DNA of 64,000 bases from Lachnospiraceae bacterium. GTDB lineage: Bacteria > Bacillota > Clostridia > Lachnospirales > Lachnospiraceae. The notes under the pieces are model-generated. The model saw only the letters and a list, made by a program, of their open reading frames with translations. It did no database searches and was not told the DNA's origin. This document shows, piece after piece, positions 1 through 13,525 of the stretch (positions are counted from its first letter, which is position 1; every line of letters starts with the position of its first letter). Position numbers and translations under genes: made by a program. The stretch spans positions 7,385 to 71,384 of the forward strand of contig JAIKVW010000020.1 in NCBI GenBank assembly GCA_024685315.1, in the 5' to 3' direction.

Positions 1-738
1 GAAATCCTGATCGAGCCCGCGCTCCTCCATGCGGCTTCGCACGGCCTCAAGATTATAACGGATTGTCTCATTCTGCTGGGTCAGGAAAAGCACGGTCTTC
101 TTTCCGTTTTCCGCAGAAAGATGCGCCTTCGCTTTGCGGCTGTAGCAGGTCTGGAAACACTTCTGCGCCGCCTTGTGCCCGGTCCGCAGGACCCAGCCCG
201 CGGCCCGCTTTCCGGTATTTTTGATCTTTGCAAGGCGCGAGGGCTTCTTCTCATTATCGAAGCCCTTGTACGCCTTGCGGACGGTATCCATGACCCTCAT
301 ATTAAGGAAGAGCGCGGCGTCGTTATTCTCTATCGAGAAATCTATGCAGAACGCGGCCCAGCCCTTGTCATGGATCAGGACCTTTCCGAGGTCCTTTACC
401 TTTTCCGCGATCCGGCTGCTGACGGCCGCCTTCGCGATGATCTCATTTCCATCGCAGGCGTACAGCGAATAGACCGCGGAAGGCAGACAGCTGCAGTAAC
501 CCGGATTGGTAACGTTTACTCTGAGGCGCAGCTTTCCTCCGGAAATCTCCTCCGCCTCCATCTTCGCCTTTACGGAGCCCTGTTCCGTGACCAGGAAGAA
601 CTCGAGTCCTTCCGCCGCGGGCTGTATCTCCGCCTCTATCACAAGGTACACCCGTTCCCAGCTGATCTCTGTGATAACAAAGGTGACCCGGCCTTCGTCC
701 CGCCGGTCTTCCATCCTGATCTTTCTGCTGCCGTCCAT
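1..738 (-). CDS. TagB/TagF-family CDP-alditol phosphotransferase, N-terminal 246 codons (gene runs off the left edge of the window)
   Basis: Absent from the ORF track because there is no in-window stop. My reverse-strand translation from the ATG at 736-738 stays open to base 1 (MDGSRKIRMEDRRDEG...GKKTVLFLTQQNETIRYNLEAVRSRMEERGLDQDF). An in-frame TAA sits directly upstream of the ATG. The KKTVLF..Q....I.YNL segment resembles the start of TagF-type catalytic regions. The + ORF 121..1263 is its antisense shadow. Confidence 0.5.
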   Translation of the reverse strand, partial: MDGSRKIRMEDRRDEGRVTFVITEISWERVYLVIEAEIQPAAEGLEFFLVTEQGSVKAKMEAEEISGGKLRLRVNVTNPGYCSCLPSAVYSLYACDGNEIIAKAAVSSRIAEKVKDLGKVLIHDKGWAAFCIDFSIENNDAALFLNMRVMDTVRKAYKGFDNEKKPSRLAKIKNTGKRAAGWVLRTGHKAAQKCFQTCYSRKAKAHLSAENGKKTVLFLTQQNETIRYNLEAVRSRMEERGLDQDF

Positions 739-747
739 TTATCTCAA

Positions 748-2088
748 TTAAAAACCATAGAAAATACTGTCAACGTTGTAGCTGTACTTGGTCGCGTAGT
801 TGTAGTCCTCGATCCTGGAAATGATGTGGTCGATCACAAGGTTCCTGGGATCCGGCACGAGCTTGCCGTCGCGCACCTTAGCATACTGCTCGGGCATGTA
901 CTGGTGCAGCATTCCGAGAGGAATGTGGACATTGTTCGTATCGAGGTTCGCCAAGAGCTTCTCAATCGCGCCCTTTACATTGGGGTCTGCGATATAGTAC
1001 CTGGACCTGTCGGAAAGGCTGTACCTGCGCTTGAGGTACTGCTCCTTCTCGGTTCCCTTGTAGTATACCTGCCAGTTGCCCGGATTCTCGAGCATCGCCT
1101 TCTCAAGGACTTCAGGGTAATTCGCGCGCTGGTCTTCGTCGATGAGCTCTTTCTCAATAAGGCTGAGCGCGAAGAGTCCCTCGCGGGCCGCGAATGTGAG
1201 CGAAGGGCCTACTTTAAGGATGCCTACGCCGTCCTCGACCATTTCACGCAGCTGTTTCGGTGACTGGTAGTCGGTGGAATGTCCCTCGAGCACCATTCCG
1301 GGGTACTGCTGGATCGCTTCGCTGAGCGCTACGGTCTTGGTGCGGTTGTACCTGACAAGGTTCTCGTCGCCGAACTCAACGCCGGGCTGTACAACTATGC
1401 CGACTATCGAGGAGAAAGCTCCGGGGATCCCGAGCTTTTCAAACTCTTCCTGATAGACCTGGATCGTGTTGTGAAGGTCTTCGGGCTTGGTGATCGCTAC
1501 CTGGTCCTGCTCCTCCTGCTCGCCGCCGGGGATCGGGACCTCGCTGCCGATGATGTAGGAAGGACGCATCTCGTTAGGATTCTCCTTCAGGAGCTGCTGG
1601 TAAGCCTCCTCGCAGACCTTGTAGAGCCTTGCACCGCGGCGCGCGATCGTCCTGGTCTCGAGCATTTCTGTCTTGGAATCATCGCCGAGACGCATGCTGG
1701 TGTCGAGGTGGATCTTCTTGTAGCCAGCGAGCACGTACTCCCTGACAAGGTCTTCGGCCTTCTTCATCGCCGTTTCCTCGGGCTCCTTGCACCATACCAG
1801 CGGTCCCAGATGGTCGCCGCCCAGGATCACGCGGTCCCTGGGGAATCCGACCTTGTCCGCGATCCCAAGGACATAGTCCCTGAAATCCGCGGGACGCATC
1901 CCTGTGTATCCGCCGAACTGGTTGACCTGGTTCGAAGTACCCTCGATCAGGATGTCGTCGTAGAATCTCTTGCCCTGCTCAAAGCAGGCCTCGATAACGA
2001 GCCCGTTTGCCGTGCAGTATGAAGGTATTCCGCAGTGGATCCCTGCATTACGCTTGGCGATCATTTCATGTAAAGTATCTCTCTGCAT
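748..2088 (-). CDS. GatZ/KbaZ/AgaZ-family protein (tagatose-bisphosphate aldolase accessory subunit / tagatose-6-phosphate epimerase-like)
   Basis: 446-aa ORF. CGIPSYCTAN near the N-terminus, then NQVNQFGGYTGM, GGDHLGP and HLDTSM blocks typical of the GatZ/KbaZ family as I recall it. Confidence 0.8.
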   Translation of the reverse strand: MQRDTLHEMIAKRNAGIHCGIPSYCTANGLVIEACFEQGKRFYDDILIEGTSNQVNQFGGYTGMRPADFRDYVLGIADKVGFPRDRVILGGDHLGPLVWCKEPEETAMKKAEDLVREYVLAGYKKIHLDTSMRLGDDSKTEMLETRTIARRGARLYKVCEEAYQQLLKENPNEMRPSYIIGSEVPIPGGEQEEQDQVAITKPEDLHNTIQVYQEEFEKLGIPGAFSSIVGIVVQPGVEFGDENLVRYNRTKTVALSEAIQQYPGMVLEGHSTDYQSPKQLREMVEDGVGILKVGPSLTFAAREGLFALSLIEKELIDEDQRANYPEVLEKAMLENPGNWQVYYKGTEKEQYLKRRYSLSDRSRYYIADPNVKGAIEKLLANLDTNNVHIPLGMLHQYMPEQYAKVRDGKLVPDPRNLVIDHIISRIEDYNYATKYSYNVDSIFYGF

Positions 2089-2112
2089 ATATCTGATTAC
2101 TCCTCTGTAAAA

Positions 2113-2823
2113 TTATTCCGCCGGGAAAAAATATGTATCAAGAAGGACCTTGAGCAGCTCAAAATCCCCCGGATAGGTGAGTTTAAGGTTCAGCACGTTC
2201 GCGGGGATCACTCTCATGTGTATCCCGTGCGCAAGCGCCATCGCGCCGGCCGATGTCATCGCTGCAAGCTCCTCGTCGGTAGAGCCCATGTAGATGCCGT
2301 AAAGGTCGCCGAACCTGAAGGCTTCAGGTGAAGCTCCGGACACGAGCTCCTCCCTGGGGATCACGGAGACGAGGTCCATATCGGAATTAATGCGGTAACA
2401 GGTGTCATACTGCCTTGCCCCGAGCGTCGCCGCGCCGGATTCATTTACCGCGTCGATAATACCCCTGGTGCCTTCCGCGTCAACATAAGGATGCGTCGCG
2501 TCATGTATCAGGATAACATCGCTGTCACCGGAAAAAGGCTTTATCGCCTTAAGGCCGTTGCGCACTGACTGCGAGCGGTTGTCTCCGCCCTGGGTCACGA
2601 GAATATTCTTCGTCCCCGGATCGATGTCCGAGATCGCTTCCCTGACGTAATCGATCCAGTCCCCGTGTGAAACGATGCAGATGGCCGATACCTCCTCGAC
2701 CTTGGCGTACCTGCGCACGATATAGTAAAATACCGGCTTTCCGTTTATCTCCAGGTACTGCTTGGGACGGTCCGCGCCCATGCGGGTGCCCGTGCCGCCC
2801 ATCATCAACAAAACTGTATTCAT
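2113..2823 (-). CDS. IspD/TarI-type CTP:alditol-phosphate cytidylyltransferase
   Basis: 236-aa ORF. N-terminal LLMMGGTGTRMG...PKQYL nucleotide-binding loop and a later ILIHDATHPYV block typical of IspD/TarI cytidylyltransferases. Its stop lies 24 nt before the GatZ-like start. Confidence 0.85.
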   Translation of the reverse strand: MNTVLLMMGGTGTRMGADRPKQYLEINGKPVFYYIVRRYAKVEEVSAICIVSHGDWIDYVREAISDIDPGTKNILVTQGGDNRSQSVRNGLKAIKPFSGDSDVILIHDATHPYVDAEGTRGIIDAVNESGAATLGARQYDTCYRINSDMDLVSVIPREELVSGASPEAFRFGDLYGIYMGSTDEELAAMTSAGAMALAHGIHMRVIPANVLNLKLTYPGDFELLKVLLDTYFFPAE

Positions 2824-3012
2824 AATTCTGTTCTCCGTTAGGGCCTTCCGGCCTCTGTTTTACATGCACATAGTTATATCTATTATACAAAAACACCCCT
2901 GCTTTGTAAATAAACAGGGCTCTTCCATGAATAATATAATTCTGTTATACTGAGGAGTACAAATGATCCAGATTTCAGAAGGGGAGGTGCGCCTGCGGGC
3001 GCAGATCATATT

Positions 3013-4059
3013 ATGAAAGCAGCAGTTCTCTATTCAAATGAAGATATCAGGTATGCTGACTGGCCGGAGCCCGAAGTCGCTCCGGGGACCGTCAAGATCG
3101 CGGTCAAGGCTGCAGGCATATGCGGCTCGGACGTTCCGCGCGTGCTTAACAATGCGGCCCATTACTATCCTATAGTGCTCGGGCATGAGTTTTCCGGGAT
3201 CGTCGCCGATGTCGGCGAAGGCGTAACAAAGGTCAAGCCTGGCGACCACGTCTGCGGCGTGCCTCTTAAGCCCTGTATGAAGTGCCCCGACTGCGCGAAG
3301 GGCAATTTCTCCCAGTGCAAGCATTACAGCTTCATCGGCTCCCGCGAGCAGGGAGCCTTCGCGGAATATATAGTTATCCCCGAGATCAACGCGGTAAAGA
3401 TCGATCCCGAGATATCATTTGAGCAGGGCGCGCTCTTCGAGCCCTCCTCGGTCTGCATGCACGCGATGCGCTGCACGGATTATAAGGGCGGTGGGAATGT
3501 AGCGGTCCTCGGCTGCGGCACCATCGGCATCTTCACGATGCAGTGGGCAAAGATCTTCGGTGCCCGCACCGTCACGTCCTTCGCGACTTCCCCGAAGAGC
3601 CTGGGGCTTGCCTCACGCATGGGCGCCGACTATACAATTAATACGAAGGATGAGGATTTCTTCGAGAAGGCGATGGAGATTACCGGCGGCGCAGGATTCG
3701 ACTATGTATTTGAATCCGCAGGCTCGAACTTCACTCATGTGCTCGCGCTTAAGCTTGCCGGGAATCACGCACACGTGTGCTATGTCGGGACCCCGAAATC
3801 ACCCCTCACATTTACCGTAAATGAATGGGAGAACCTGAACCGGAAAGAGCTGAAAGTCACCGGATCCTGGATGTCCGGCGCGGCACCCTACCCCGGGAGC
3901 GACTGGGAGCTCACCGACAGGTGCTTTGCAGATGGCAGGCTGAAATACGATCCCGATCTCTTCCACGCGGTCTATCCGCTGGAGCAGTGCGCAGATGCCT
4001 TCCAGGAATACAAGACCCCCGGGAAGGTAAAAGGCAGGATACTGTTTAAGATTAGCTGA
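3013..4059 (+). CDS. Zn-dependent medium-chain alcohol dehydrogenase, GatD-like (galactitol-1-phosphate 5-dehydrogenase family) or TarJ-analogous alditol-phosphate dehydrogenase
   Basis: 348-aa ORF. GICGSDVPRVLNNAAHYYPIVLGHEFSG, structural-zinc cysteines CMKCPDCAKGNFSQC, FIGSREQGAFAEYIV, GCGTIG Rossmann loop and KELKVTGSWM. These blocks look very close to E. coli GatD from memory. Confidence 0.8.
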   Translation: MKAAVLYSNEDIRYADWPEPEVAPGTVKIAVKAAGICGSDVPRVLNNAAHYYPIVLGHEFSGIVADVGEGVTKVKPGDHVCGVPLKPCMKCPDCAKGNFSQCKHYSFIGSREQGAFAEYIVIPEINAVKIDPEISFEQGALFEPSSVCMHAMRCTDYKGGGNVAVLGCGTIGIFTMQWAKIFGARTVTSFATSPKSLGLASRMGADYTINTKDEDFFEKAMEITGGAGFDYVFESAGSNFTHVLALKLAGNHAHVCYVGTPKSPLTFTVNEWENLNRKELKVTGSWMSGAAPYPGSDWELTDRCFADGRLKYDPDLFHAVYPLEQCADAFQEYKTPGKVKGRILFKIS

Positions 4060-4189
4060 GGCTGGCCTGGTTCCAGAGCCTGGCTGTGGCCGGGCCGGGC
4101 TTTGCCTGTTTAAGAGGATGTCTGCTCTAGCTTTTTCATAAAATGGCGCCATCGATTTTTCCGAAGGCGGTGTCACTAACTTGATTTCT

Positions 4190-4230
4190 TTGACCGGGCA
4201 TACCCTGCGGGATGCCCGGTCAATGCTTTT
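4190..4230 (+). terminator. Hairpin plus T-run downstream of the GatD-like gene
   Basis: TTGACCGGGCAT (4190-4201) pairs with ATGCCCGGTCAA (4212-4223), followed by TGCTTTT. Confidence 0.5.
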
Positions 4231-4278
4231 GAAGATCAGGCACCATTCTTCAAAGTTTTATCCCATATGTCTTTGTAT

Positions 4279-4372
4279 GCATAATAGCGCGCGTGACACC
4301 TCTTTAGGATGTCTCGCGCGCTATTATGCTAATCCGGCATACCGCCCGTTTATACCGGGCCGGTATGCCGGA
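4279..4372. repeat. Two further long hairpins in the convergent spacer
   Basis: 4279-4297 GCATAATAGCGCGCGTGAC pairs with 4311-4329 GTCTCGCGCGCTATTATGC (19 bp, one mismatch). 4333-4344 TCCGGCATACCG pairs with 4361-4372 CGGTATGCCGGA. Confidence 0.6.
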
Positions 4373-4572
4373 CATTTGTTATTCACCATTTGGCTTACAT
4401 TAGGGTATGCCTTTATTAGAAAAGTTGCCTACGGGCCTTCCCCTCGTAAAAAATGCGGTGCCGATTCGAAGAAATGCGGTGCCAGGCACCCGCCCGCAAA
4501 CTCCCCGAAAAACAGTTTAACATCATGTAAAGACATATCTGCCTTAAAGGCCCGCACCGTCTCCCCGCAGCT

Positions 4573-7500
4573 TTACTGCTGCCCTTTCTCAGCGATATAT
4601 TTCACAAGCCTTTCGGTGGCATGCCCATCGCATCCGTCGAACATCCGCTCCCTGAAGGCTTCCATCGCGGTATAGTCGTAGTTCTCCCGCGCACGGATCT
4701 CCTTAGCGAGCCCTACGGCACCGGAAACCACCGGACAGAACAGGAAGGACTCGAAATCCCTCGCATTCACGCTCATATTCGTGACCTTGATCACTTCTTC
4801 ATAATCGAAGGCCGTGGAATACACAGGCTTGTGAAGGAGTGCGGACTCAAAGAAGGTGTCCCTGTAATCCCCCACAATGATGTCGCACGCTGCCATGAGC
4901 TCCCGGAGCGAGATCCCTTCCAGGACAAGCTTCGAGAATCCCGGTATCTCCAGGGTGTTCTCGTACCCGTCCTTGATCTGTGCACTGTTCAGGTTCACGA
5001 CCACGCTGAAGCCCTCCCCGAGCTCTTCTTTGAGGACTTCGAGGTCGATCATACTGATCCAGGAAGGACATTTGCTGCGGTACCTGACCGCGGGCATGTA
5101 AAGGATCCTGACCGTTCCCGCAGATTCAGGGAACAGTCCGTCCAGCTTCGCAGCGGCTTTCTCGCAGAAACTTTCCTTAAAAAAGCTGTCCGTCGCGCTG
5201 CATCCCATAAGGTCAGTATGGGTCTTTCTCATGCCCGAGAACATTTGGCTGATAAGTCCTGCACGGCTCTGCCCCGGCACCTGCACCTGGGCAAAATCAT
5301 TTGCTCCGGTGAACCTGGTGTAGAGAGTCTGCCACTTAAGGAAATAATCCGCCAGGCGTCCGTGGTTATAGAGCGGGAAGGCAGTATCGCGCACCAGGAT
5401 CTCCTCGGTCTCCGGCCGGAAAATGACTTTCGCGAAAAGAGGTATCGGCGAGCTCACTATGACGAACTTCGCTTTCGCCAGCTTCCCGGCGACCTCTTCC
5501 TGATCGGCAGGATTGCCGAGACAGAGCTCTTCAACCCTGAAACCGGGGATCTTCTTAAGCGGGGCCTCAAGGTAACCCAGCGACCCGCGGGGAACAGCCT
5601 TTCCCGCAGTCACCATAAGTATGAGATCCTCGGGCATTTCCTCCTCTGCCGCCTTCGCATAAAGGGCCGCAAAAGCTTCTGATTTCTTCAGGATATCCTG
5701 ATATTTCTTCCTGAACTTCTCATTCTGCGACTGCTCAGGCTTCGTGAGTATCCTGTCAAGATTGAATTCCTCGCCCGGAAGGCGCTGGTACATCGTATCG
5801 TAGCGGGCCTTTATCTTTTCAGGAGAGCGCGCATAGGACATTACATAATCCGAAGTGAGCACCCAGTCGGCCCTTCCGTGGATACGTTCCTGAACGAGGT
5901 CCAGGCTCGCGTCTGTGTATGGCGGGGCGAACTCGCGAGTCTTTCCGTAAAGCGGCGTCGCGTCTTTCAGATACCCGATCCTCCCTGCAAAGGCAGGCGT
6001 ATCCCTGTTCTCGTTGTAATAGTCAAACACGAACTCATATAGCAGGCGGCTCGTATCCTCCGGCGTCCTCAGCCCGAGGCGCGCGTAGCGGCGCGCGAAC
6101 TCCGGAAGGATCTCATTCATCGACTCGAAAAGCTCCTCGTCGTAGGAGTCCTCCCTGATGACCGGATAAAGCCTTCCGTTTTCGCGGTATTCATATTTTT
6201 CAATGCTCTTGTAGGGCATGTTCGCGAATACCGCTTCGATAAAGATCTGCCTTACGTCATTCGTCGTAAAGTTGTAGCGCGTGTTGCCCGGAGAGCTCTG
6301 CAGAATGCAGATGCTGTAATAGAAGGCGAGGTCAATATCTTCGTCCCCGAAGGTGTCAACCAGGAGCCTCCGCAGGCAGGCCTGGTTGTATCCGCGGCCG
6401 TAGTATTCCACGATCGCGTACTTTTCGGAAGGATCTATCTCCTGCCTCAGGTATTCCTCCACCGGGACACGTTCCTCGGCAGCCTTGGCCAGCAGATACT
6501 CGCTGTAGGCTTCCGAAGACTTGAAAACTTCCCTAAGCGCCAGTATCTCATCCTTCGTCTCGAAATTGATCCTGTCCGGATCGACCGAAGGGAAGAGGCT
6601 GCGGAATTTTTCCTCAGTGAGGTCCATCGCGCTGAAAAGGCTTTCCTTTGAGGTGATCCCGTTGAAATTTCCGTAATCCTCCCAGAATCCCGGATCTATT
6701 TCGTCAATATATGAAGGGATCCTCCAGGTCTTTCTGGAGGCGTAAATGTAGCGGGTCTTCATGGCTATCCCGCGGGCCTGGATGATCGCGTCTGCGATGC
6801 GTTTCAGATGGTGTCCGTCGCGGGAAACGAAGTACAGTGTCTGATAACCCCTCCTTACCGCATCGCGGAGCACCCAGTCAATATAGGGCACGAACAGGAG
6901 CGAAATGTATGAGATGACAAAATCGTCGTCCCTCAGGGAGTATTCCTCCCTCATCCTGGCCTGCATTGCCGCGGTCAGGAAGGCGTCATAGGTCGCGAGA
7001 TCCTTGGTCATCGCCTTCTCAATATCATTTAATACCGGCTTCCGGACATTCCTGGTCCGGATGCTGAAGAGCTGCGGCTGCCTTCTGTCGGCATTGTCAT
7101 TGTCACCGTAGTGGATCCATTTCTCGAAATCGTAATACGGCTCAAAGCTCTTGTAGACCTCGAAGAACAGCCCTCCGGAAGACTTCATCATGCCGGACTC
7201 ATTCGAGATAAAGACCTTAAGCCTCTCGAGCGCAGGGTCTGCCTTCTTAAGCATTTCCCTGACGAACCAGAGCGGCAGGTACATGTCGCTTATGAGGACT
7301 ACCTCAGCCATGGGGTCCGCCATCAGCTTTTTCACCAGCTCTATCTGCCGGCGGAGAGGGATGACGTTATCGAGCTCGGCATCGAGCTCCCACTCCTTCA
7401 GCAGCTGCGTCTGGCCCTCATCCAGCCCGTAGACGTCCGCCAGCCTGCGGAATATCGAGTCAAATGTGATCTCCTCGGTCTCGCTCTGCCTGACCCCTTT

Positions 7501-8874
7501 GGTCTTCTGCATGAATTCGCGGCAGTTAAGCTCCGCGTCATGCCGGATCTGAGGGTAGCGCCTTACAAGTGCGGCCGGGAAGCCGCCGCGCTCCTCCATC
7601 TTTTCCCTTACAAGGTAGAATATCCCCGAAGGCTCCAGGACTTTCCTCGAGAACAGGGTGTCAAATATATCAAAGCTGTAGAGTGTCTTAAATGAGCGCT
7701 TCACCGGCTCGAACTCAAGCGTCCGGCTGATTATCGTCTCGAAATCAGCCTTTCCCTGCGAATACGACCACAGATCTTTTGCCAGGCGCTTCACCTCGCG
7801 GGACTCTCTGAATTTTAATCCGCCGAATCTTCCCATCGCATCAAGGAGCTCGGGGAAGCTCTTCGCGATTGTCCCTACGGTCCTCTTCATGTATGCGTCG
7901 TGGTTGTCGACACTCCCCATGTACTCATCGTAATCAAATATGTAACGGATGTAGTGGGGCACGCCCATGAGGACCATGTCGGAAACTATGGAAGAATAGT
8001 CATACACCGCGAGGTCCACGGCGTGCATGACCTCGTAGAAATCGTCTTTATTATCCCAGAACCAGAAATAAGGCCTGTCCCCGTATTTCTCCGCGGCAGC
8101 CCTGAATCCGGCGTCATTTTCCATTGCAGGATGCATTTTAAAGATGAAGAGGATCCCATGCTCCTCGCAGAATCTGTACAGCCGCTCTATATCCGGGAGC
8201 GCCCGGGCAAAGGTACCCTCGTGGTCCGCCCTGTAGGTAGGCGCGTACACCGCGGTTTTGGTGCGTGCAGGCAGGCCCTTCCTCCCCCGCAGATCGTGGT
8301 CGAAGGTCCTGACCGGCTCGAAATTCTGCTGGTAGAGACACCTCGGATACCCGCTTCGGATGATCTTTTCCTCGTCGACCCCGGCGTCTAGGATAAACTC
8401 CTTCTCTAGCTCCGGGGAGCTTACGGTCATAAGCTGGTTGTCCCTGTAATAGGTCCCGTGTTTAATATATTTCTTTGCTATACCGCCGGCGATCTCTCCG
8501 GTGAAAAGCCTGCGCTCTATCGTCTTGAACCCGATCCCGTGCCAGAGATTAAGGTAGACCGCGTTCTCGAGCCCCTGAGGGATCTCAACCTTCACCTGCT
8601 CCGCCGCGATCACCCCGGTCCGGTCCATAATGAACTGGGCTTCAGGCGAAGCCGGAGAAAAGGCGTAAAACCCGAGCGAGCGAACTGTCTCTATGGTCTC
8701 TTCGCTCTCGGAAAGCCAGTAAGCCAGGATATCTTTGCGAAAATTGTTGATATAGGCAAAGAGGTATTTGGGGTTCCCCCTGAAATCCTGACTGCTCTGC
8801 CCCGCGATAAAGGCCCAGATATGCTTTCTGTCGAATCCCAGACAGAGCTCACGGAAGTCTACGCTCGTTTCCAT
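4573..8874 (-). CDS. Giant multidomain wall-polymer synthase: TagF-like phosphotransferase, HAD-like domain, unknown region, second TagF-like domain
   Basis: 1433-aa ORF. N-terminal TagF signatures (NLWHGIGFK, AVYAPTYR, FIFKMHP). Central HAD motif I (YSFDIFDTLFSRK) with a later HYGDNDNAD. C-terminal second TagF-like unit (ILYMPAVRYR, IVGDYRDTFFESALLHKPV). Confidence 0.85.
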   Translation of the reverse strand: METSVDFRELCLGFDRKHIWAFIAGQSSQDFRGNPKYLFAYINNFRKDILAYWLSESEETIETVRSLGFYAFSPASPEAQFIMDRTGVIAAEQVKVEIPQGLENAVYLNLWHGIGFKTIERRLFTGEIAGGIAKKYIKHGTYYRDNQLMTVSSPELEKEFILDAGVDEEKIIRSGYPRCLYQQNFEPVRTFDHDLRGRKGLPARTKTAVYAPTYRADHEGTFARALPDIERLYRFCEEHGILFIFKMHPAMENDAGFRAAAEKYGDRPYFWFWDNKDDFYEVMHAVDLAVYDYSSIVSDMVLMGVPHYIRYIFDYDEYMGSVDNHDAYMKRTVGTIAKSFPELLDAMGRFGGLKFRESREVKRLAKDLWSYSQGKADFETIISRTLEFEPVKRSFKTLYSFDIFDTLFSRKVLEPSGIFYLVREKMEERGGFPAALVRRYPQIRHDAELNCREFMQKTKGVRQSETEEITFDSIFRRLADVYGLDEGQTQLLKEWELDAELDNVIPLRRQIELVKKLMADPMAEVVLISDMYLPLWFVREMLKKADPALERLKVFISNESGMMKSSGGLFFEVYKSFEPYYDFEKWIHYGDNDNADRRQPQLFSIRTRNVRKPVLNDIEKAMTKDLATYDAFLTAAMQARMREEYSLRDDDFVISYISLLFVPYIDWVLRDAVRRGYQTLYFVSRDGHHLKRIADAIIQARGIAMKTRYIYASRKTWRIPSYIDEIDPGFWEDYGNFNGITSKESLFSAMDLTEEKFRSLFPSVDPDRINFETKDEILALREVFKSSEAYSEYLLAKAAEERVPVEEYLRQEIDPSEKYAIVEYYGRGYNQACLRRLLVDTFGDEDIDLAFYYSICILQSSPGNTRYNFTTNDVRQIFIEAVFANMPYKSIEKYEYRENGRLYPVIREDSYDEELFESMNEILPEFARRYARLGLRTPEDTSRLLYEFVFDYYNENRDTPAFAGRIGYLKDATPLYGKTREFAPPYTDASLDLVQERIHGRADWVLTSDYVMSYARSPEKIKARYDTMYQRLPGEEFNLDRILTKPEQSQNEKFRKKYQDILKKSEAFAALYAKAAEEEMPEDLILMVTAGKAVPRGSLGYLEAPLKKIPGFRVEELCLGNPADQEEVAGKLAKAKFVIVSSPIPLFAKVIFRPETEEILVRDTAFPLYNHGRLADYFLKWQTLYTRFTGANDFAQVQVPGQSRAGLISQMFSGMRKTHTDLMGCSATDSFFKESFCEKAAAKLDGLFPESAGTVRILYMPAVRYRSKCPSWISMIDLEVLKEELGEGFSVVVNLNSAQIKDGYENTLEIPGFSKLVLEGISLRELMAACDIIVGDYRDTFFESALLHKPVYSTAFDYEEVIKVTNMSVNARDFESFLFCPVVSGAVGLAKEIRARENYDYTAMEAFRERMFDGCDGHATERLVKYIAEKGQQ

Positions 8875-8936
8875 AAAAAATGCCTCCAGTATCTTAAAGC
8901 TCCCGGCGATCAGGCCGGGAGCTTCGCCATGTAGTT

Positions 8937-9536
8937 TCAGCTTTTTACAAATACCCTAATATTATCCAGGGTGAGCCAGAGCCCTCCCTGCGCCAGCTTT
9001 GAAGTAAGCAGGCTGCCGACGGCAGCCTTATTCGCGCTGACGCTCTTCGCCAGAAGCAGCTCCTGGCGGGTGTGTTCCTGCGAGATCAGGAAATCCTGCA
9101 CATGGTTCAAATAGTATGAAGCCGGGGCCGGATCGATGCCGTTAAACATCGTCGGTGCCGTCCTCTCGTCGTAGTACATCGGAAGCACGTTATTGATCAC
9201 CACGGAAGGCGTGTATGAAGTGATCACGAGCGACACCGCGACGGGCACCGGACCGTCCTTATCCGCCTTCACCGAAAGGTCCCCGACGCGCACCGGACCA
9301 AGCTCCCTCGAGAGCAGCCCTTCCAGCTGGGGTATATAATCGGCCTTATGGCTGTTTACCGCCTCCGCGACCATCTCGTGCTTCTTGCCCTCCGGAAGCT
9401 TCTTGACCATCTTCTGCGCGAGCTTCGGGATCTTTACGCCCCCGGCGAGTTCCGGATTCTGCTTAAGCATCTCCATCATCCGGTCGATCAGACTATTGTA
9501 GTCCACCGACCCGATCTCAAATACGAATTTAATCAT
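8937..9536 (-). CDS. Hypothetical protein, last gene of the peptidase/transpeptidase operon
   Basis: 199-aa ORF starting 1 nt after the stop codon of the upstream gene. I recognise no motif. Confidence 0.55.
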   Translation of the reverse strand: MIKFVFEIGSVDYNSLIDRMMEMLKQNPELAGGVKIPKLAQKMVKKLPEGKKHEMVAEAVNSHKADYIPQLEGLLSRELGPVRVGDLSVKADKDGPVPVAVSLVITSYTPSVVINNVLPMYYDERTAPTMFNGIDPAPASYYLNHVQDFLISQEHTRQELLLAKSVSANKAAVGSLLTSKLAQGGLWLTLDNIRVFVKS

Positions 9537-9537
9537 T

Positions 9538-11010
9538 CTAATCTTCTTCAGGGGCTTTGTACGAGTACGCGTTCGCTACCCTGCAGTTCTCGTTGGTGAG
9601 CTCCACTTCCTCAGTGTAATATGCGATGACCGGAGTGCCTATCGCGATCTCGTTGAAGAGCTGCTCCGCCTGCTCGTCAGGCATATTGACGCAGCCGTGC
9701 GAACCGCTGGTCTTGTAGATCTCGCCGCCGAACTCCGTCCTCCAGTCAGCGTCATGGAAGCCTACGTTGTAGGCAAAAGGCATGAAGAACTTGACTGGCG
9801 ACTCGTAGTCTTCACCGGTAAGGGTGGTGTCCGTCATCACGGTCTTTATGAAGAAAACTCCATCAGGGGAACCGTTCCCGGCGTTAAGATTTCCTGTGAC
9901 CACGTCGCAATCGAGGATGAGCTCTCCGTCCTCGTAGTACCACATGTGCTGTGCTGTGTAGTTGACTTCCGCGTAGGTATTGCCGATATCGTCCTTGCCT
10001 GTCACGAAGGCCCTCTGCTCATAGCAGGGCTCCCTGGTGATGGACTCCCCGGCAAGAATGTCCAGAGCAAGCTGCTCTGCCTCCGCGGGCTTATCGATGA
10101 TCCAGCCGTAATCTCCTCCGCCGATCTCAATGGTACCGCTGTCCGTGGTCTTGAAACTGCGGGTCTCAGAGTAGGTGTTGAATTTGTAGGCAAGCTGCTG
10201 CGCGTACTCGGCGCACATGTCTTCATTTACGGTGATAGAAAGATCCGAATTGATCGTGATCCAGGAAAGGATGGTCTTTCCGTCAAGCACGAGCGAAGAA
10301 CCGTCCGGAGTTTCGTAGGTTATCTTCATAGCCTTGTACTTGTCGGAGACCGCTACCTTGCTGAGCAGATCCGGGTCATCCGAACGCACCTGGGGCTTTG
10401 CGTAGTCGTCATCGGTGAGGACGACCTTGCTCGCCTTCGCAGCGATGGCCGCGCGGATATCGATCAGCACCTGCTCAAGCAGAGGCTTGTTGCCTTCCAC
10501 CTCGGGCACGATCACGTACTCATTGTTCCTGTATTCAACGTAAGCGTCCTTGGGCTCGGTAATATTTTTGGTCTGGAAGATATCCAGGTTCTTTACGGTC
10601 TCGACCAGCTTTTCGTCATCGTAGGAAGTGTGGACCTCTACAGTCTGGTTCTCGACCTTCCTGATGTTCAGTATCCACAGGCCGCTGTTCTGGGCCTCCA
10701 TCAGCTTCTCAACACTGTCGCCGATGTAAGCTGTGTAGTCAATATCCGGGCCGTTGATGTACCTCACCCCGCCGTCCCTGTCATGAACAGCCAGCATGTA
10801 GTCCTGCTCGGCAGAGGTGATTGTTTTTTTGACTTCCTCCACGGTCTTAAACGAATATGACTTCCCGTTGATGGTCGTATCCGGGTAAAAATGATCCGAA
10901 AAATAACGCGCGGCAAAGATGTACCCTGCTGCTATCAACGCGAGCACAACTATAAGGATTATCAGAGGTTTTTTGCTTCGTTTCTTTTTCTTCGAGCTTT
11001 TACCTGCCAT
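9538..11010 (-). CDS. Membrane-anchored L,D-transpeptidase (YkuD domain) family protein
   Basis: 490-aa ORF. Lys-rich N-terminus followed by a TM helix (PLIILIVVLALIAAGYIFAA). C-terminal YkuD catalytic motif GSHGCVNM. Confidence 0.8.
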   Translation of the reverse strand: MAGKSSKKKKRSKKPLIILIVVLALIAAGYIFAARYFSDHFYPDTTINGKSYSFKTVEEVKKTITSAEQDYMLAVHDRDGGVRYINGPDIDYTAYIGDSVEKLMEAQNSGLWILNIRKVENQTVEVHTSYDDEKLVETVKNLDIFQTKNITEPKDAYVEYRNNEYVIVPEVEGNKPLLEQVLIDIRAAIAAKASKVVLTDDDYAKPQVRSDDPDLLSKVAVSDKYKAMKITYETPDGSSLVLDGKTILSWITINSDLSITVNEDMCAEYAQQLAYKFNTYSETRSFKTTDSGTIEIGGGDYGWIIDKPAEAEQLALDILAGESITREPCYEQRAFVTGKDDIGNTYAEVNYTAQHMWYYEDGELILDCDVVTGNLNAGNGSPDGVFFIKTVMTDTTLTGEDYESPVKFFMPFAYNVGFHDADWRTEFGGEIYKTSGSHGCVNMPDEQAEQLFNEIAIGTPVIAYYTEEVELTNENCRVANAYSYKAPEED

Positions 11011-11038
11011 GTGAAATCCTCCGTGTAATTATTATTGT

Positions 11039-13525
11039 TTATCTCTCAAGCGCAGGCGTCCAGTACTCCTCGTTGTAGATGTCCGTGAACCTGTATGAGA
11101 TGAGGAGGGTCGTTCCGCTGGGAACGGAAACGTCGCTGAGCGTGAGGCCATCAGCTCCGTCCTCTCCGACAGTTATCGCGGAGCCAAGCTTGTAGCTTCC
11201 CTCATACTCGCCTTCGAGAGTGTAGTAATCGCAAATGAACTGGATGGTGTCGCCTTCGGCCATTTCAGTCGCTGCCTTGGCTACCTGATCAGTCTCTCCG
11301 TCCGCATAAACCGGGCGCACTCCGGCAACATATCCGCCCTCGTTGCTGCTGTCGTATACGACGATGAGTTCGGACTGGACGTCATTGTAGAGCGCCGGAA
11401 CACGGTAGACTATGGAGTACTCTTCCCCGTTGGTCGTGGTGGACATGCGGTAGCATGCGACAGGCTGGTCATTGATGGCCATCCAGCTGCGGTTATCGTC
11501 CGCGATGAGATTTCCTTCCTCGTCAAACGTAAATATTGTGTCAAGTCCGAGATCGATATATCCGTCATCGTCCTTAACAAATGCGTTCAGCTCAAGGTCA
11601 TGGACGAGTGCCCACTGATCCTCGCTGAGGGTAAGGATATCCTCTCCGTCCTCATTCTGGGTCCAGACGAGCTGTGAGGGATCAAAGCTATTGGCAATAA
11701 TGTACTCAGTGATCTCCTGATCCGTCAGAGACCTACCGCCAAAGAACTGCGAAAATCCGTCCATTCCGGAAACTGATCCGGTGTCCCCGCCGAGGAAGCT
11801 CTGGAGAAGTCCGGAAATAAGATCCGAACTGGAGTAGCCTGAATAATAATCAGAGCTGTTCCCCTGGAAGAGGTATGAAGGGCTTGAGGTGCCGCCGTGG
11901 GATGCCTGGCCGCTGACCTCCATGCTCGCGAATTCCCTTATGCAGGTGGAATAATCGTCGTCCATGCCGATGGACTTATAGGTGCTGACTGCCTTGTCGA
12001 CATAGCTCGTCCTCTGGTAAGGGAAGTAGATCGAGATGCCGTAGGCGTTGGTCATATTGGAAGAGGTACGGTTGTACTTCACCGCGCTCTTAAGAGCGGC
12101 CATGAGCTCGGAGCCCTCGGTATTGCCGATCTGCATCGCGAAATGATAAAGGTCGATCTGGTCGATCCTGGAGCTTGTCGCGAACTCCCTGGTCTGGTTC
12201 CTGGCGTTCGATACGGTCCTGTACTGCCCGTCCTTCGTGATCATTTCAGTGATGCTTCTCGCAAATGCGTTAAGCGCGTCCGGAACCGCATAGGAGAACT
12301 CTGCAAGGTCAGTCACGGAAAGAGTTGCGGCCTGTCCGTAGCACTGCGATGCGCAGGTCTTTACAAAGCTGTCTACTATAGTCTGTCCAAGCTCGGGAGT
12401 CGAGATGGAAGTATTCTGGATCAGGGCCTTGAGCCAGTCGGTATAGTACCAGCCGATTCCGGGCTCGGTCTCCTCAGAGGCTATCATGTAGTCAGCGTAG
12501 GGCTCAAGCATGAACGCGGTCTCGGCCGTAGCCATGAGGCAGGCATCGAATCCGATAAAATCAAAGGTAACCCCGCCGTCCTCAAGCGCGGTCTGGATCC
12601 CGTCGAGAGTCATCGAACCGCTTGAGGAATACTTCTCGTCATATCCGTAGCCGCTGACAGATCCGCCGCCGTGATCCCAGAGTATCAGCTCATAGCGGTT
12701 CGCTTCGTAATTCTCAGCGCAGAACTGTATAAACGAGCTGAGAGTCGAGGGATTCGTCATAGAGGCCTTTCCGGCGTTGCTGACCAAGGGGGTGAGCTTG
12801 CCGGGTCCGACCTCATAAATCTGGTTGACACTGCTGTCAACTATATTGTTCCTCCAGCTCCTGCAGCCGCCGGTATAAACAATGAGGTTCACATTGCTGC
12901 CTTCTATGATACCAGAAGCCATTTCCTGTAAGTCCTTCGTAGCCATTCCGTTCTGGGACTCAAGGTCGGTACCGCACATGTAAATCATGATGGTGACTAC
13001 GTCCTCGCCGTTCCCGAGGATTCTCGTCCTCTTGTCCCTTGCCTTTGCAGAAACTTCCGTGTTAAGCGATGCCTGCTGGGCATCCGTATCCGACCAGCCG
13101 GTGCTGATAGAGGAGTTTCCGGCATACAGTCCAAGCGACGACAGATCGGTGGACGTACTGCTTGCGCTGCCCGATGTGCTGCTGCCGTAGCTCTCGCCCG
13201 TCATGGGGTTATATCCGCCGATCAGGTTCGCGCCGCCGCCCATGAAGAAGAAAACGAGAACTATTACCACGGCGGCAAGGATGATCTGCTTGCCGTTTAC
13301 TGCGGTTTTATATCGTTCGGCCCGGGCACGGTCCTCTGCTTCATTTTTTTTTATTCTTTCCTGGCGGTCTTCCTCGAAGGCGCGCCTTTTCTCCTGCTTC
13401 TGCTCTTTGCGGCTCTTGTATCCGTCAGAAGAGCCAACAGGCCCGTTCGTCTCGACCTTGTCGCCCTTGGAAAAATTCCCGGTAGTTCCGCTTTCATTCC
13501 TCTTTCTTCCGGTCGGTCTGTCCAT
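11039..13525 (-). CDS. Clostripain-related cysteine peptidase (C11 family) with N-terminal basic region and TM helix
   Basis: 828-aa ORF. His/Cys dyad context LILWDHGGGS ... FIGFDACLMA typical of the C11 family. TM segment IILAAVVIVLVFFFMGG. Confidence 0.8.
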   Translation of the reverse strand: MDRPTGRKRNESGTTGNFSKGDKVETNGPVGSSDGYKSRKEQKQEKRRAFEEDRQERIKKNEAEDRARAERYKTAVNGKQIILAAVVIVLVFFFMGGGANLIGGYNPMTGESYGSSTSGSASSTSTDLSSLGLYAGNSSISTGWSDTDAQQASLNTEVSAKARDKRTRILGNGEDVVTIMIYMCGTDLESQNGMATKDLQEMASGIIEGSNVNLIVYTGGCRSWRNNIVDSSVNQIYEVGPGKLTPLVSNAGKASMTNPSTLSSFIQFCAENYEANRYELILWDHGGGSVSGYGYDEKYSSSGSMTLDGIQTALEDGGVTFDFIGFDACLMATAETAFMLEPYADYMIASEETEPGIGWYYTDWLKALIQNTSISTPELGQTIVDSFVKTCASQCYGQAATLSVTDLAEFSYAVPDALNAFARSITEMITKDGQYRTVSNARNQTREFATSSRIDQIDLYHFAMQIGNTEGSELMAALKSAVKYNRTSSNMTNAYGISIYFPYQRTSYVDKAVSTYKSIGMDDDYSTCIREFASMEVSGQASHGGTSSPSYLFQGNSSDYYSGYSSSDLISGLLQSFLGGDTGSVSGMDGFSQFFGGRSLTDQEITEYIIANSFDPSQLVWTQNEDGEDILTLSEDQWALVHDLELNAFVKDDDGYIDLGLDTIFTFDEEGNLIADDNRSWMAINDQPVACYRMSTTTNGEEYSIVYRVPALYNDVQSELIVVYDSSNEGGYVAGVRPVYADGETDQVAKAATEMAEGDTIQFICDYYTLEGEYEGSYKLGSAITVGEDGADGLTLSDVSVPSGTTLLISYRFTDIYNEEYWTPALER

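Follow-up and report, generated by a model that had tools for sequence, protein, structure and literature searches.

Near one end of a 64,000-nucleotide stretch of the genome of a Lachnospiraceae bacterium (assembly GCA_024685315.1; positions 7385-71384 of contig C30, hereafter the window), three genes lie between members of the TagF family of cytidine diphosphate (CDP)-alditol phosphotransferases. They encode a GatZ/KbaZ-family protein of 446 amino acids (748-2088, minus strand), an IspD/TarI-family cytidylyltransferase of 236 amino acids (2113-2823, minus strand) and a GatD-like medium-chain Zn-dehydrogenase of 348 amino acids (3013-4059, plus strand). An open reading frame listing and profile searches placed this trio exactly where an earlier reading of the DNA letters (hereafter the sequence-only reading) had put it. 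That reading had also claimed that two TagF-family genes flank the trio, and PF04464 was indeed found on both sides: in a 1433-residue protein (4573-8874, minus strand) and in a 597-residue protein whose gene (contig C30 6329-8122, minus strand) is entered by the window, so that its first 246 codons occupy window positions 1-738 and the remainder lies upstream. The ispD-like, gatZ-like and 597-residue tagF genes run in the same direction, separated by 24 and 9 nucleotides, with tagF as the last gene of the unit. The gatD-like gene diverges from this unit across a 189-nucleotide intergenic region (2824-3012) that carries back-to-back promoter-like sites, each the best consensus match found on its strand in positions 1-9700: TTTACA-17-TATAAT on the minus strand for the ispD-like operon (2910-2882, 11 of 12 consensus positions) and TAAACA-18-TATAAT on the plus strand for the gatD-like gene (2911-2940, 10 of 12). 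The assembly comprises 1.94 Mb in 54 contigs and is 90.65% complete, which bounds every genome-wide absence reported below.

The dehydrogenase, which consists of ADH_N and ADH_zinc_N domains, falls inside the GatD family. Its best NCBIfam model is GatD (NF007642, 302.7 bits), and its top match in the PDB is E. coli GatD (4a2c, 253.8 bits, the runner-up scoring 141.6 bits), with which it shares 38% identity overall. The blocks that the sequence-only reading gave as common to the two proteins (GICGSDvPR..AHYYPivLGHEFSG, FIGSReqGaFAEYIV and KELkVtGSWM) are all visible in the HMMER alignment to 4a2c. By contrast, identity to the host genome's own TarJ is 24% (31 bits), and neither profile searches nor the tree group the protein with ribulose-5-phosphate reductases, in agreement with the sequence-only reading. 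With GatDs encoded in clostridial catabolic operons, it shares 58-63% identity. When the tree was rooted with E. coli GatD as the outgroup, all trio-linked and catabolic GatDs lay within the GatD family, the trio-linked ones as lineages on long branches that surround a well-supported 73-row clade, nearly all of it catabolic (65 adjoin a GatY-like gene and a few are of unclear context). An alignment of E. coli GatD, 69 catabolic clostridial GatDs and 44 trio-linked GatDs revealed 61 conserved columns, including the catalytic Zn ligands C38, H59, E60 and E144 and the structural Zn cysteines C89, C92, C95 and C103 (E. coli numbering). A search for residues that separate catabolic from trio-linked GatDs gave only five weak, inconsistent columns and no consistent substitution in the pocket. 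This common core and the lack of a consistent pocket change argue for the same substrate pair in both groups, namely tagatose-6-phosphate and galactitol-1-phosphate.

The cofactor site is where the trio-linked proteins stand apart. In Rossmann folds, the acidic residue that ends strand beta-2 specifies nicotinamide adenine dinucleotide (NAD), and in E. coli GatD this residue is Asp192. Direct inspection showed that the window dehydrogenase has Ala191 at this place, within the motif FATSPKS. The Asp is kept in 79 of 79 GatD homologues outside the trio context and replaced in 35 of 44 trio-linked ones, counts that are not independent because the trio label switches only two or three times on the tree. 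The replacements are mostly Gly, Asn or Val, followed by Arg. Such a loss typically marks the use of NADP(H), and thus points to an NADPH-using reductase that would work in the biosynthetic direction.

Epimerization between fructose-6-phosphate and tagatose-6-phosphate has been shown for the GatZ proteins of E. coli and Agrobacterium. The GatZ-like protein of the window matches PF08013 (GatZ_KbaZ-like) over positions 1-419/420 with 571.7 bits, against a gathering score of 26.7. It shares 45% identity with E. coli GatZ, scores 374 bits against PDB 2fiq and 3txv, and reaches 522.4 bits on the TIGR02810 equivalog model (tagatose-bisphosphate aldolase subunit), under the cut-off of 568.8. E. coli GatZ and KbaZ convert fructose-6-phosphate to tagatose-6-phosphate in vivo, and a Zn-dependent retro-aldol mechanism involving C20, E44, D87, H88, E171, H257 and K279 has been proposed for GatZ (PMC11907403). 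All seven of these residues are kept in the aligned window protein; across 53 GatZ homologues, C20 is present in 52 (the exception being a gap) and the other six are invariant. The host genome has a single GatZ-like and a single GatD-like gene. A profile search of the genome found no class II aldolase (PF01116), tblastn with E. coli GatY, GatA and GatB gave no matches, and none of the 86 trio loci that we collected contains a GatY-like gene. Because the genome is without a class II aldolase or GatY match, the GatZ-like protein does not seem to act as an aldolase partner here.

The cytidylyltransferase belongs to the IspD family (PF01128, 116.1 bits against a gathering score of 27) and falls below the equivalog cut-offs of both IspD (TIGR00453, 135.8 versus 181.3) and TarI (NF001183, 131.3 versus 166). 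Its closest solved structures are ribitol-5-phosphate cytidylyltransferases (4jis, 108 bits), yet it is only 30% identical to the TarI of its own host, and in the tree a branch of 2.76 changes per site lies between its subfamily and TarI. This TarI is part of a canonical tarI-tarJ pair on contig C21 (12713-14511, minus strand), which adjoins a CsaB-like polysaccharide pyruvyl-transferase-like gene and has no TagF gene nearby. The TarI of the pair scores 345 bits on NF001183 (cut-off 166), and its TarJ matches the S. aureus ribulose-5-phosphate reductase (PDB 6xh9, 411 bits); tblastn with the GatD-like protein did not pick up this TarJ. Since a canonical TarI/TarJ pair is present separately, the trio is not the CDP-ribitol route. 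The host genome therefore has two CDP-alditol routes, of which the trio is the second and different one. Two other loci lead to the same conclusion, as tarI, tarJ, two TagF genes, the trio and a LicD gene occur in one cluster (L149 and L158, ~3789-12763). This gene content suggests polymers that combine ribitol phosphate with hexitol phosphate. We had at one point considered the trio as the sole source of CDP-alditol, which would have forced its use by the TagF enzymes; this idea was dropped when the C21 pair was found. Searches of the host genome found neither LicD nor TagD; the three PF01467 matches examined for the latter look, by eye from their length and N-terminal motifs, like NadD, CoaD and a TmcAL-type protein. 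In addition, tblastn with the IspD-like protein returned only itself and TarI, so that a canonical IspD of the methylerythritol phosphate pathway was not detected in the assembly, nor, likewise, was a class II fructose-bisphosphate aldolase.

The two flanking proteins are candidates for using the product of the trio. The 597-residue protein matches PF04464 at residues 211-563 with 218.9 bits, above the gathering score, and its 246 in-window residues by themselves have no Pfam match. The 1433-residue protein, a candidate primase or polymerase of an alditol-phosphate polymer, carries two PF04464 domains (185.3 bits, likewise above the gathering score), one at residues 11-376 and the other at window positions 4591-5478. 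Its middle ~750 residues (about 377-1130; window 5480-7745) match no Pfam family at E values up to 1, and a HAD domain was not detected in the protein, though the motif FDIFDTL is present in its sequence. Both flanking proteins score far under the cut-offs of the TarL, TarF and TarB equivalogs. Homologues of the 597-residue protein with 38-61% identity adjoin the trio in eight other loci (L099, L100, L106, L107, L121, L153, L019 and L084), and a full-length homologue of the 1433-residue protein, 54% identical, adjoins it in one (L154). A 714-residue paralogue of the 597-residue protein, with 58% identity and an acidic low-complexity insert, lies at the end of contig C53 (181-2325, minus strand).

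Is the trio linked to wall-polymer genes elsewhere, as the sequence-only reading would have it? A survey of species genomes through their best 80 GatD-like loci, which come from Clostridia and show 58-63% identity, looked negative: a GatY-like aldolase was nearby in 69 and a GatZ-like gene in eight, and the cytidylyltransferase together with TagF in only two (L019 and L065), because the matches were dominated by catabolic GatD. The commonest context of these nearest homologues is a galactitol-type aldolase/kinase operon. In an Anaerocolumna locus (L024, 6385-12012), for instance, the catabolic order is class II aldolase, LacI, FGGY kinase, GatD and PfkB kinase, and in operons of this type FGGY and PfkB kinases, together with a class II aldolase, stand in for the E. 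coli-type galactitol phosphotransferase system (PTS). Three loci (L014, L079 and L081) hold GatD and GatZ with no aldolase; the pair thus also exists as a catabolic unit. Queries with the cytidylyltransferase, whose family comprises at least 120 clusters at 56-92% identity, gave a different picture. All three sampled homologues (57-67% identity) are in a trio beside a PF04464 gene, one of them within a large locus that also encodes Wzy, glycosyltransferases, LicD and an ABC transporter. When metagenomes were scanned with an alignment of this family, 80 loci came up, of which 26 were evaluable, having 3 kb or more of sequence to either side. The GatZ-like and GatD-like genes both lie within 3.5 kb of the cytidylyltransferase gene in 22 of these 26, in varying gene order; all 26 have TagF or LicD encoded no more than 8 kb away, and none has a GatY-like gene. 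The linkage of the trio is far beyond chance. Species genomes carry the module only seldom and patchily: it turned up in one of the 398 other genomes searched from the class and in none of 80 relatives, among them five species of the same genus. Such patchiness is typical of variable surface-polymer loci.

We consider it likely that the trio is a biosynthetic module that makes a tagatose-derived, CDP-activated hexitol for a teichoic-acid-type wall polymer, and slightly favor galactitol as the hexitol. The route drawn in the sequence-only reading, from fructose-6-phosphate through tagatose-6-phosphate and galactitol-1-phosphate to CDP-galactitol and its use by TagF enzymes, is supported at the level of sequence, and none of the outcomes that this reading had named as refuting it emerged from the comparisons made here. 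The GatZ-like protein would epimerize fructose-6-phosphate at C4 to give tagatose-6-phosphate, whose C2 keto group would be reduced by the GatD-like dehydrogenase, probably with NADPH, to L-galactitol-1-phosphate (the same compound as D-galactitol-6-phosphate). The IspD/TarI-like enzyme would then join L-galactitol-1-phosphate and cytidine triphosphate into CDP-galactitol, and the flanking TagF-family enzymes would extend a growing or lipid-linked chain by units of galactitol phosphate. The reduction and the cytidylylation may alternatively be swapped, with CDP-tagatose as the intermediate; we lean towards reduction as the earlier of the two steps. Viewed as a whole, the module looks like the catabolic GatD-GatZ pair, which leads from galactitol-1-phosphate via tagatose-6-phosphate to fructose-6-phosphate, run in reverse and joined to a cytidylyltransferase.

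Several points weigh against this reading. The dehydrogenase does not reach the NF007642 equivalog cut-off of 550, nine of the 44 trio-linked GatD homologues retain the NAD-specifying Asp, and the few switches of the trio label on the tree reduce the association between trio and Asp loss to few independent contrasts (2). As the host also makes CDP-ribitol, the neighboring TagF enzymes could use that donor. In one lineage (L112 and L117), a different kind of reductase has taken the place of the GatD-like protein, which suggests that activation precedes reduction, at least there. The host is an uncultured organism, and the module is predicted from its genes. Moreover, the predicted product would be unprecedented, because the full-text literature that we searched, whose coverage leaves out many subscription journals, contains no report of CDP-galactitol or of galactitol phosphate in wall polymers. 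The earlier remark that no standard description of such a pathway is known agrees with this, as none was found in the searchable literature.

Among the alternatives, one that is unlikely without being negligible keeps the module and changes its order or product: CDP-tagatose would be made before it is reduced, in the manner of Mnp1 and HS5.18, which act on fructose-6-phosphate, and the alditol might be D-talitol or altritol. The L112 and L117 loci speak for it. They hold the IspD-like and GatZ-like genes and no medium-chain dehydrogenase/reductase (MDR); an extended short-chain dehydrogenase/reductase (SDR, PF01370) adjoins instead (L112:6787-7869 and L117:6367-7410, minus strand). This HS5.17-related enzyme matches the CDP-6-fructose reductase HS5.17 (8v4g, 120 bits) about equally well as UDP-glucuronate decarboxylase, the cytidylyltransferases of the two loci are nested in the tree inside the MDR-linked family, and HS5.18 accepts only the keto sugar phosphate (PMC10918830). 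These loci also contain an FkbM methyltransferase, a GT2 glycosyltransferase and a Wzx-type flippase. However, the SDR variant represents just one lineage, as its two cytidylyltransferases are 87% identical. Furthermore, the 61 positions common to E. coli, catabolic and trio-linked GatDs include conserved Arg, Ser and Lys residues besides the Zn ligands, and the lack of a consistent pocket change fits an unchanged substrate and the stereochemistry of GatD, as expected if tagatose-6-phosphate is reduced to galactitol-1-phosphate.

It is very improbable that a catabolic GatD and GatZ have come to lie by chance in a wall-polymer locus whose cytidylyltransferase is a second TarI for CDP-ribitol, even though the nearest dehydrogenase homologues in species genomes are mostly catabolic (69 of 80 adjoin a GatY-like aldolase) and the gatD-like gene is transcribed divergently from its two partners. 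The host genome is without an aldolase match and without matches to an E. coli-type galactitol PTS, the three open reading frames beside the trio are of the TagF family, and no hexitol or tagatose-6-phosphate kinase adjoins it. Also, the trio stays with TagF or LicD genes despite its varying gene order, the cytidylyltransferase misses the TarI cut-off and the genome encodes a true TarI/TarJ pair elsewhere, and the window dehydrogenase is without the NAD-specifying Asp. Hardly more credible is a tagatose-derived product outside polymer synthesis, for instance a CDP-linked metabolite that stays soluble, or one phosphodiester-linked substituent on a glycan. Many related loci do contain LicD-family transferases, Wzy, Wzx-type flippases and glycosyltransferases instead of or besides TagF, a context typical of repeat-unit polysaccharides with an alditol-phosphate substituent, and mannitol phosphate and glucitol phosphate serve as such substituents in capsules (PMC10918830). 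The window module, however, is flanked by TagF-family enzymes only (three catalytic domains in two proteins), and LicD was not found in the genome, which fits synthesis or priming of a chain by TagF-type enzymes.

A biosynthetic module of this kind would have relatives among characterized systems. It resembles the TarJ/TarI systems of S. aureus, B. subtilis W23 and S. pneumoniae and Bcs1 of H. influenzae in its division of labor: an MDR Zn-dehydrogenase for the reduction of a ketose phosphate, an IspD-family enzyme for the synthesis of the CDP-alditol and TagF-family enzymes (TarK/TarL) for its polymerization, all encoded in wall-polymer loci. It differs from them in having a GatD-family reductase, a predicted hexitol product in place of a pentitol, and a cytidylyltransferase distant from the host TarI and under the TarI cut-off; it also needs the additional GatZ epimerase step because tagatose-6-phosphate is not a central metabolite. 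A CDP-arabinitol pathway has been characterized as well. The pathways to CDP-glycerol, CDP-ribitol, CDP-mannitol and CDP-6-glucitol have been characterized, with Mnp1/Mnp2 of S. pneumoniae 35A making CDP-mannitol and HS5.18/HS5.17 of C. jejuni HS:5 making CDP-6-D-glucitol (PMC10918830). These two pairs likewise derive a CDP-hexitol for surface polysaccharides from fructose-6-phosphate with an IspD-family enzyme and an NADPH-dependent reductase (PMC10918830). In them, however, fructose-6-phosphate is activated first and the CDP-fructose is then reduced by an extended SDR (PF01370), there is no epimerase, and the alditols are of the gluco or manno type. The window module has the GatZ epimerase, a predicted galacto/tagato configuration and an MDR reductase; a profile search found no SDR in it, and among the trio-type loci an SDR occurs only in L112 and L117. 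With galactitol catabolism, as in the gatYZABCD system of E. coli, the GatZ route of Agrobacterium tumefaciens and the clostridial operons, the module shares the GatD and GatZ families and the intermediates galactitol-1-phosphate, tagatose-6-phosphate and fructose-6-phosphate. Here the proposed direction is reversed, a cytidylyltransferase and TagF are coupled to the pair, the NAD-binding Asp is lost, the genome holds no aldolase or galactitol PTS match, and no kinase gene adjoins the trio. The module should thus be regarded as a new version of the known CDP-alditol pathways, with an epimerase step, a GatD-family MDR reductase and an expected galacto-configured product.

The surroundings of the locus may be described briefly. 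A YkuD L,D-transpeptidase with choline-binding-type repeats is encoded directly downstream of the 597-residue tagF gene (C30 4580-6271, minus strand), and a second YkuD protein, with PG_binding_4, is encoded at window positions 9538-11010, so that peptidoglycan cross-linking enzymes flank the wall-polymer genes on both sides. Between the 1433-residue gene and the latter lies an open reading frame of 199 residues with no family match (8937-9536, minus strand). It is probably not part of the module, because none of the 86 trio loci contains a homologue. The limits of an inserted island were sought through synteny within the genus, using the adjoining clostripain-like gene, whose neighbors turned out not to be conserved in relatives.

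Wall teichoic acids and their phosphodiester relatives influence how phages adsorb, how the immune system recognizes the cell and where autolysins are targeted, and the wall-polymer chemistry of the dominant, mostly uncultured gut Clostridia is largely uncharted. With a little more conviction than doubt, we suggest that galactitol phosphate is a new teichoic-acid-type building block in gut and rumen anaerobes, made by a GatD-GatZ pair that was recruited, reversed and switched from NAD+ to NADPH. If this is true, a tagatose-derived galactitol donor would extend the set of CDP donors that now includes glycerol, ribitol, mannitol, glucitol and arabinitol, and the module would illustrate clearly how two partner enzymes of catabolism can be reversed to serve biosynthesis, with a change of cofactor. 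It would also put right the labels that these genes routinely receive in error, namely 'tagatose-bisphosphate aldolase subunit', 'galactitol-1-phosphate 5-dehydrogenase' and 'IspD'. In this genome the module would operate alongside a ribitol-phosphate pathway, so that the cell might produce a pair of chemically distinct alditol-phosphate polymers, or a single polymer of mixed composition.

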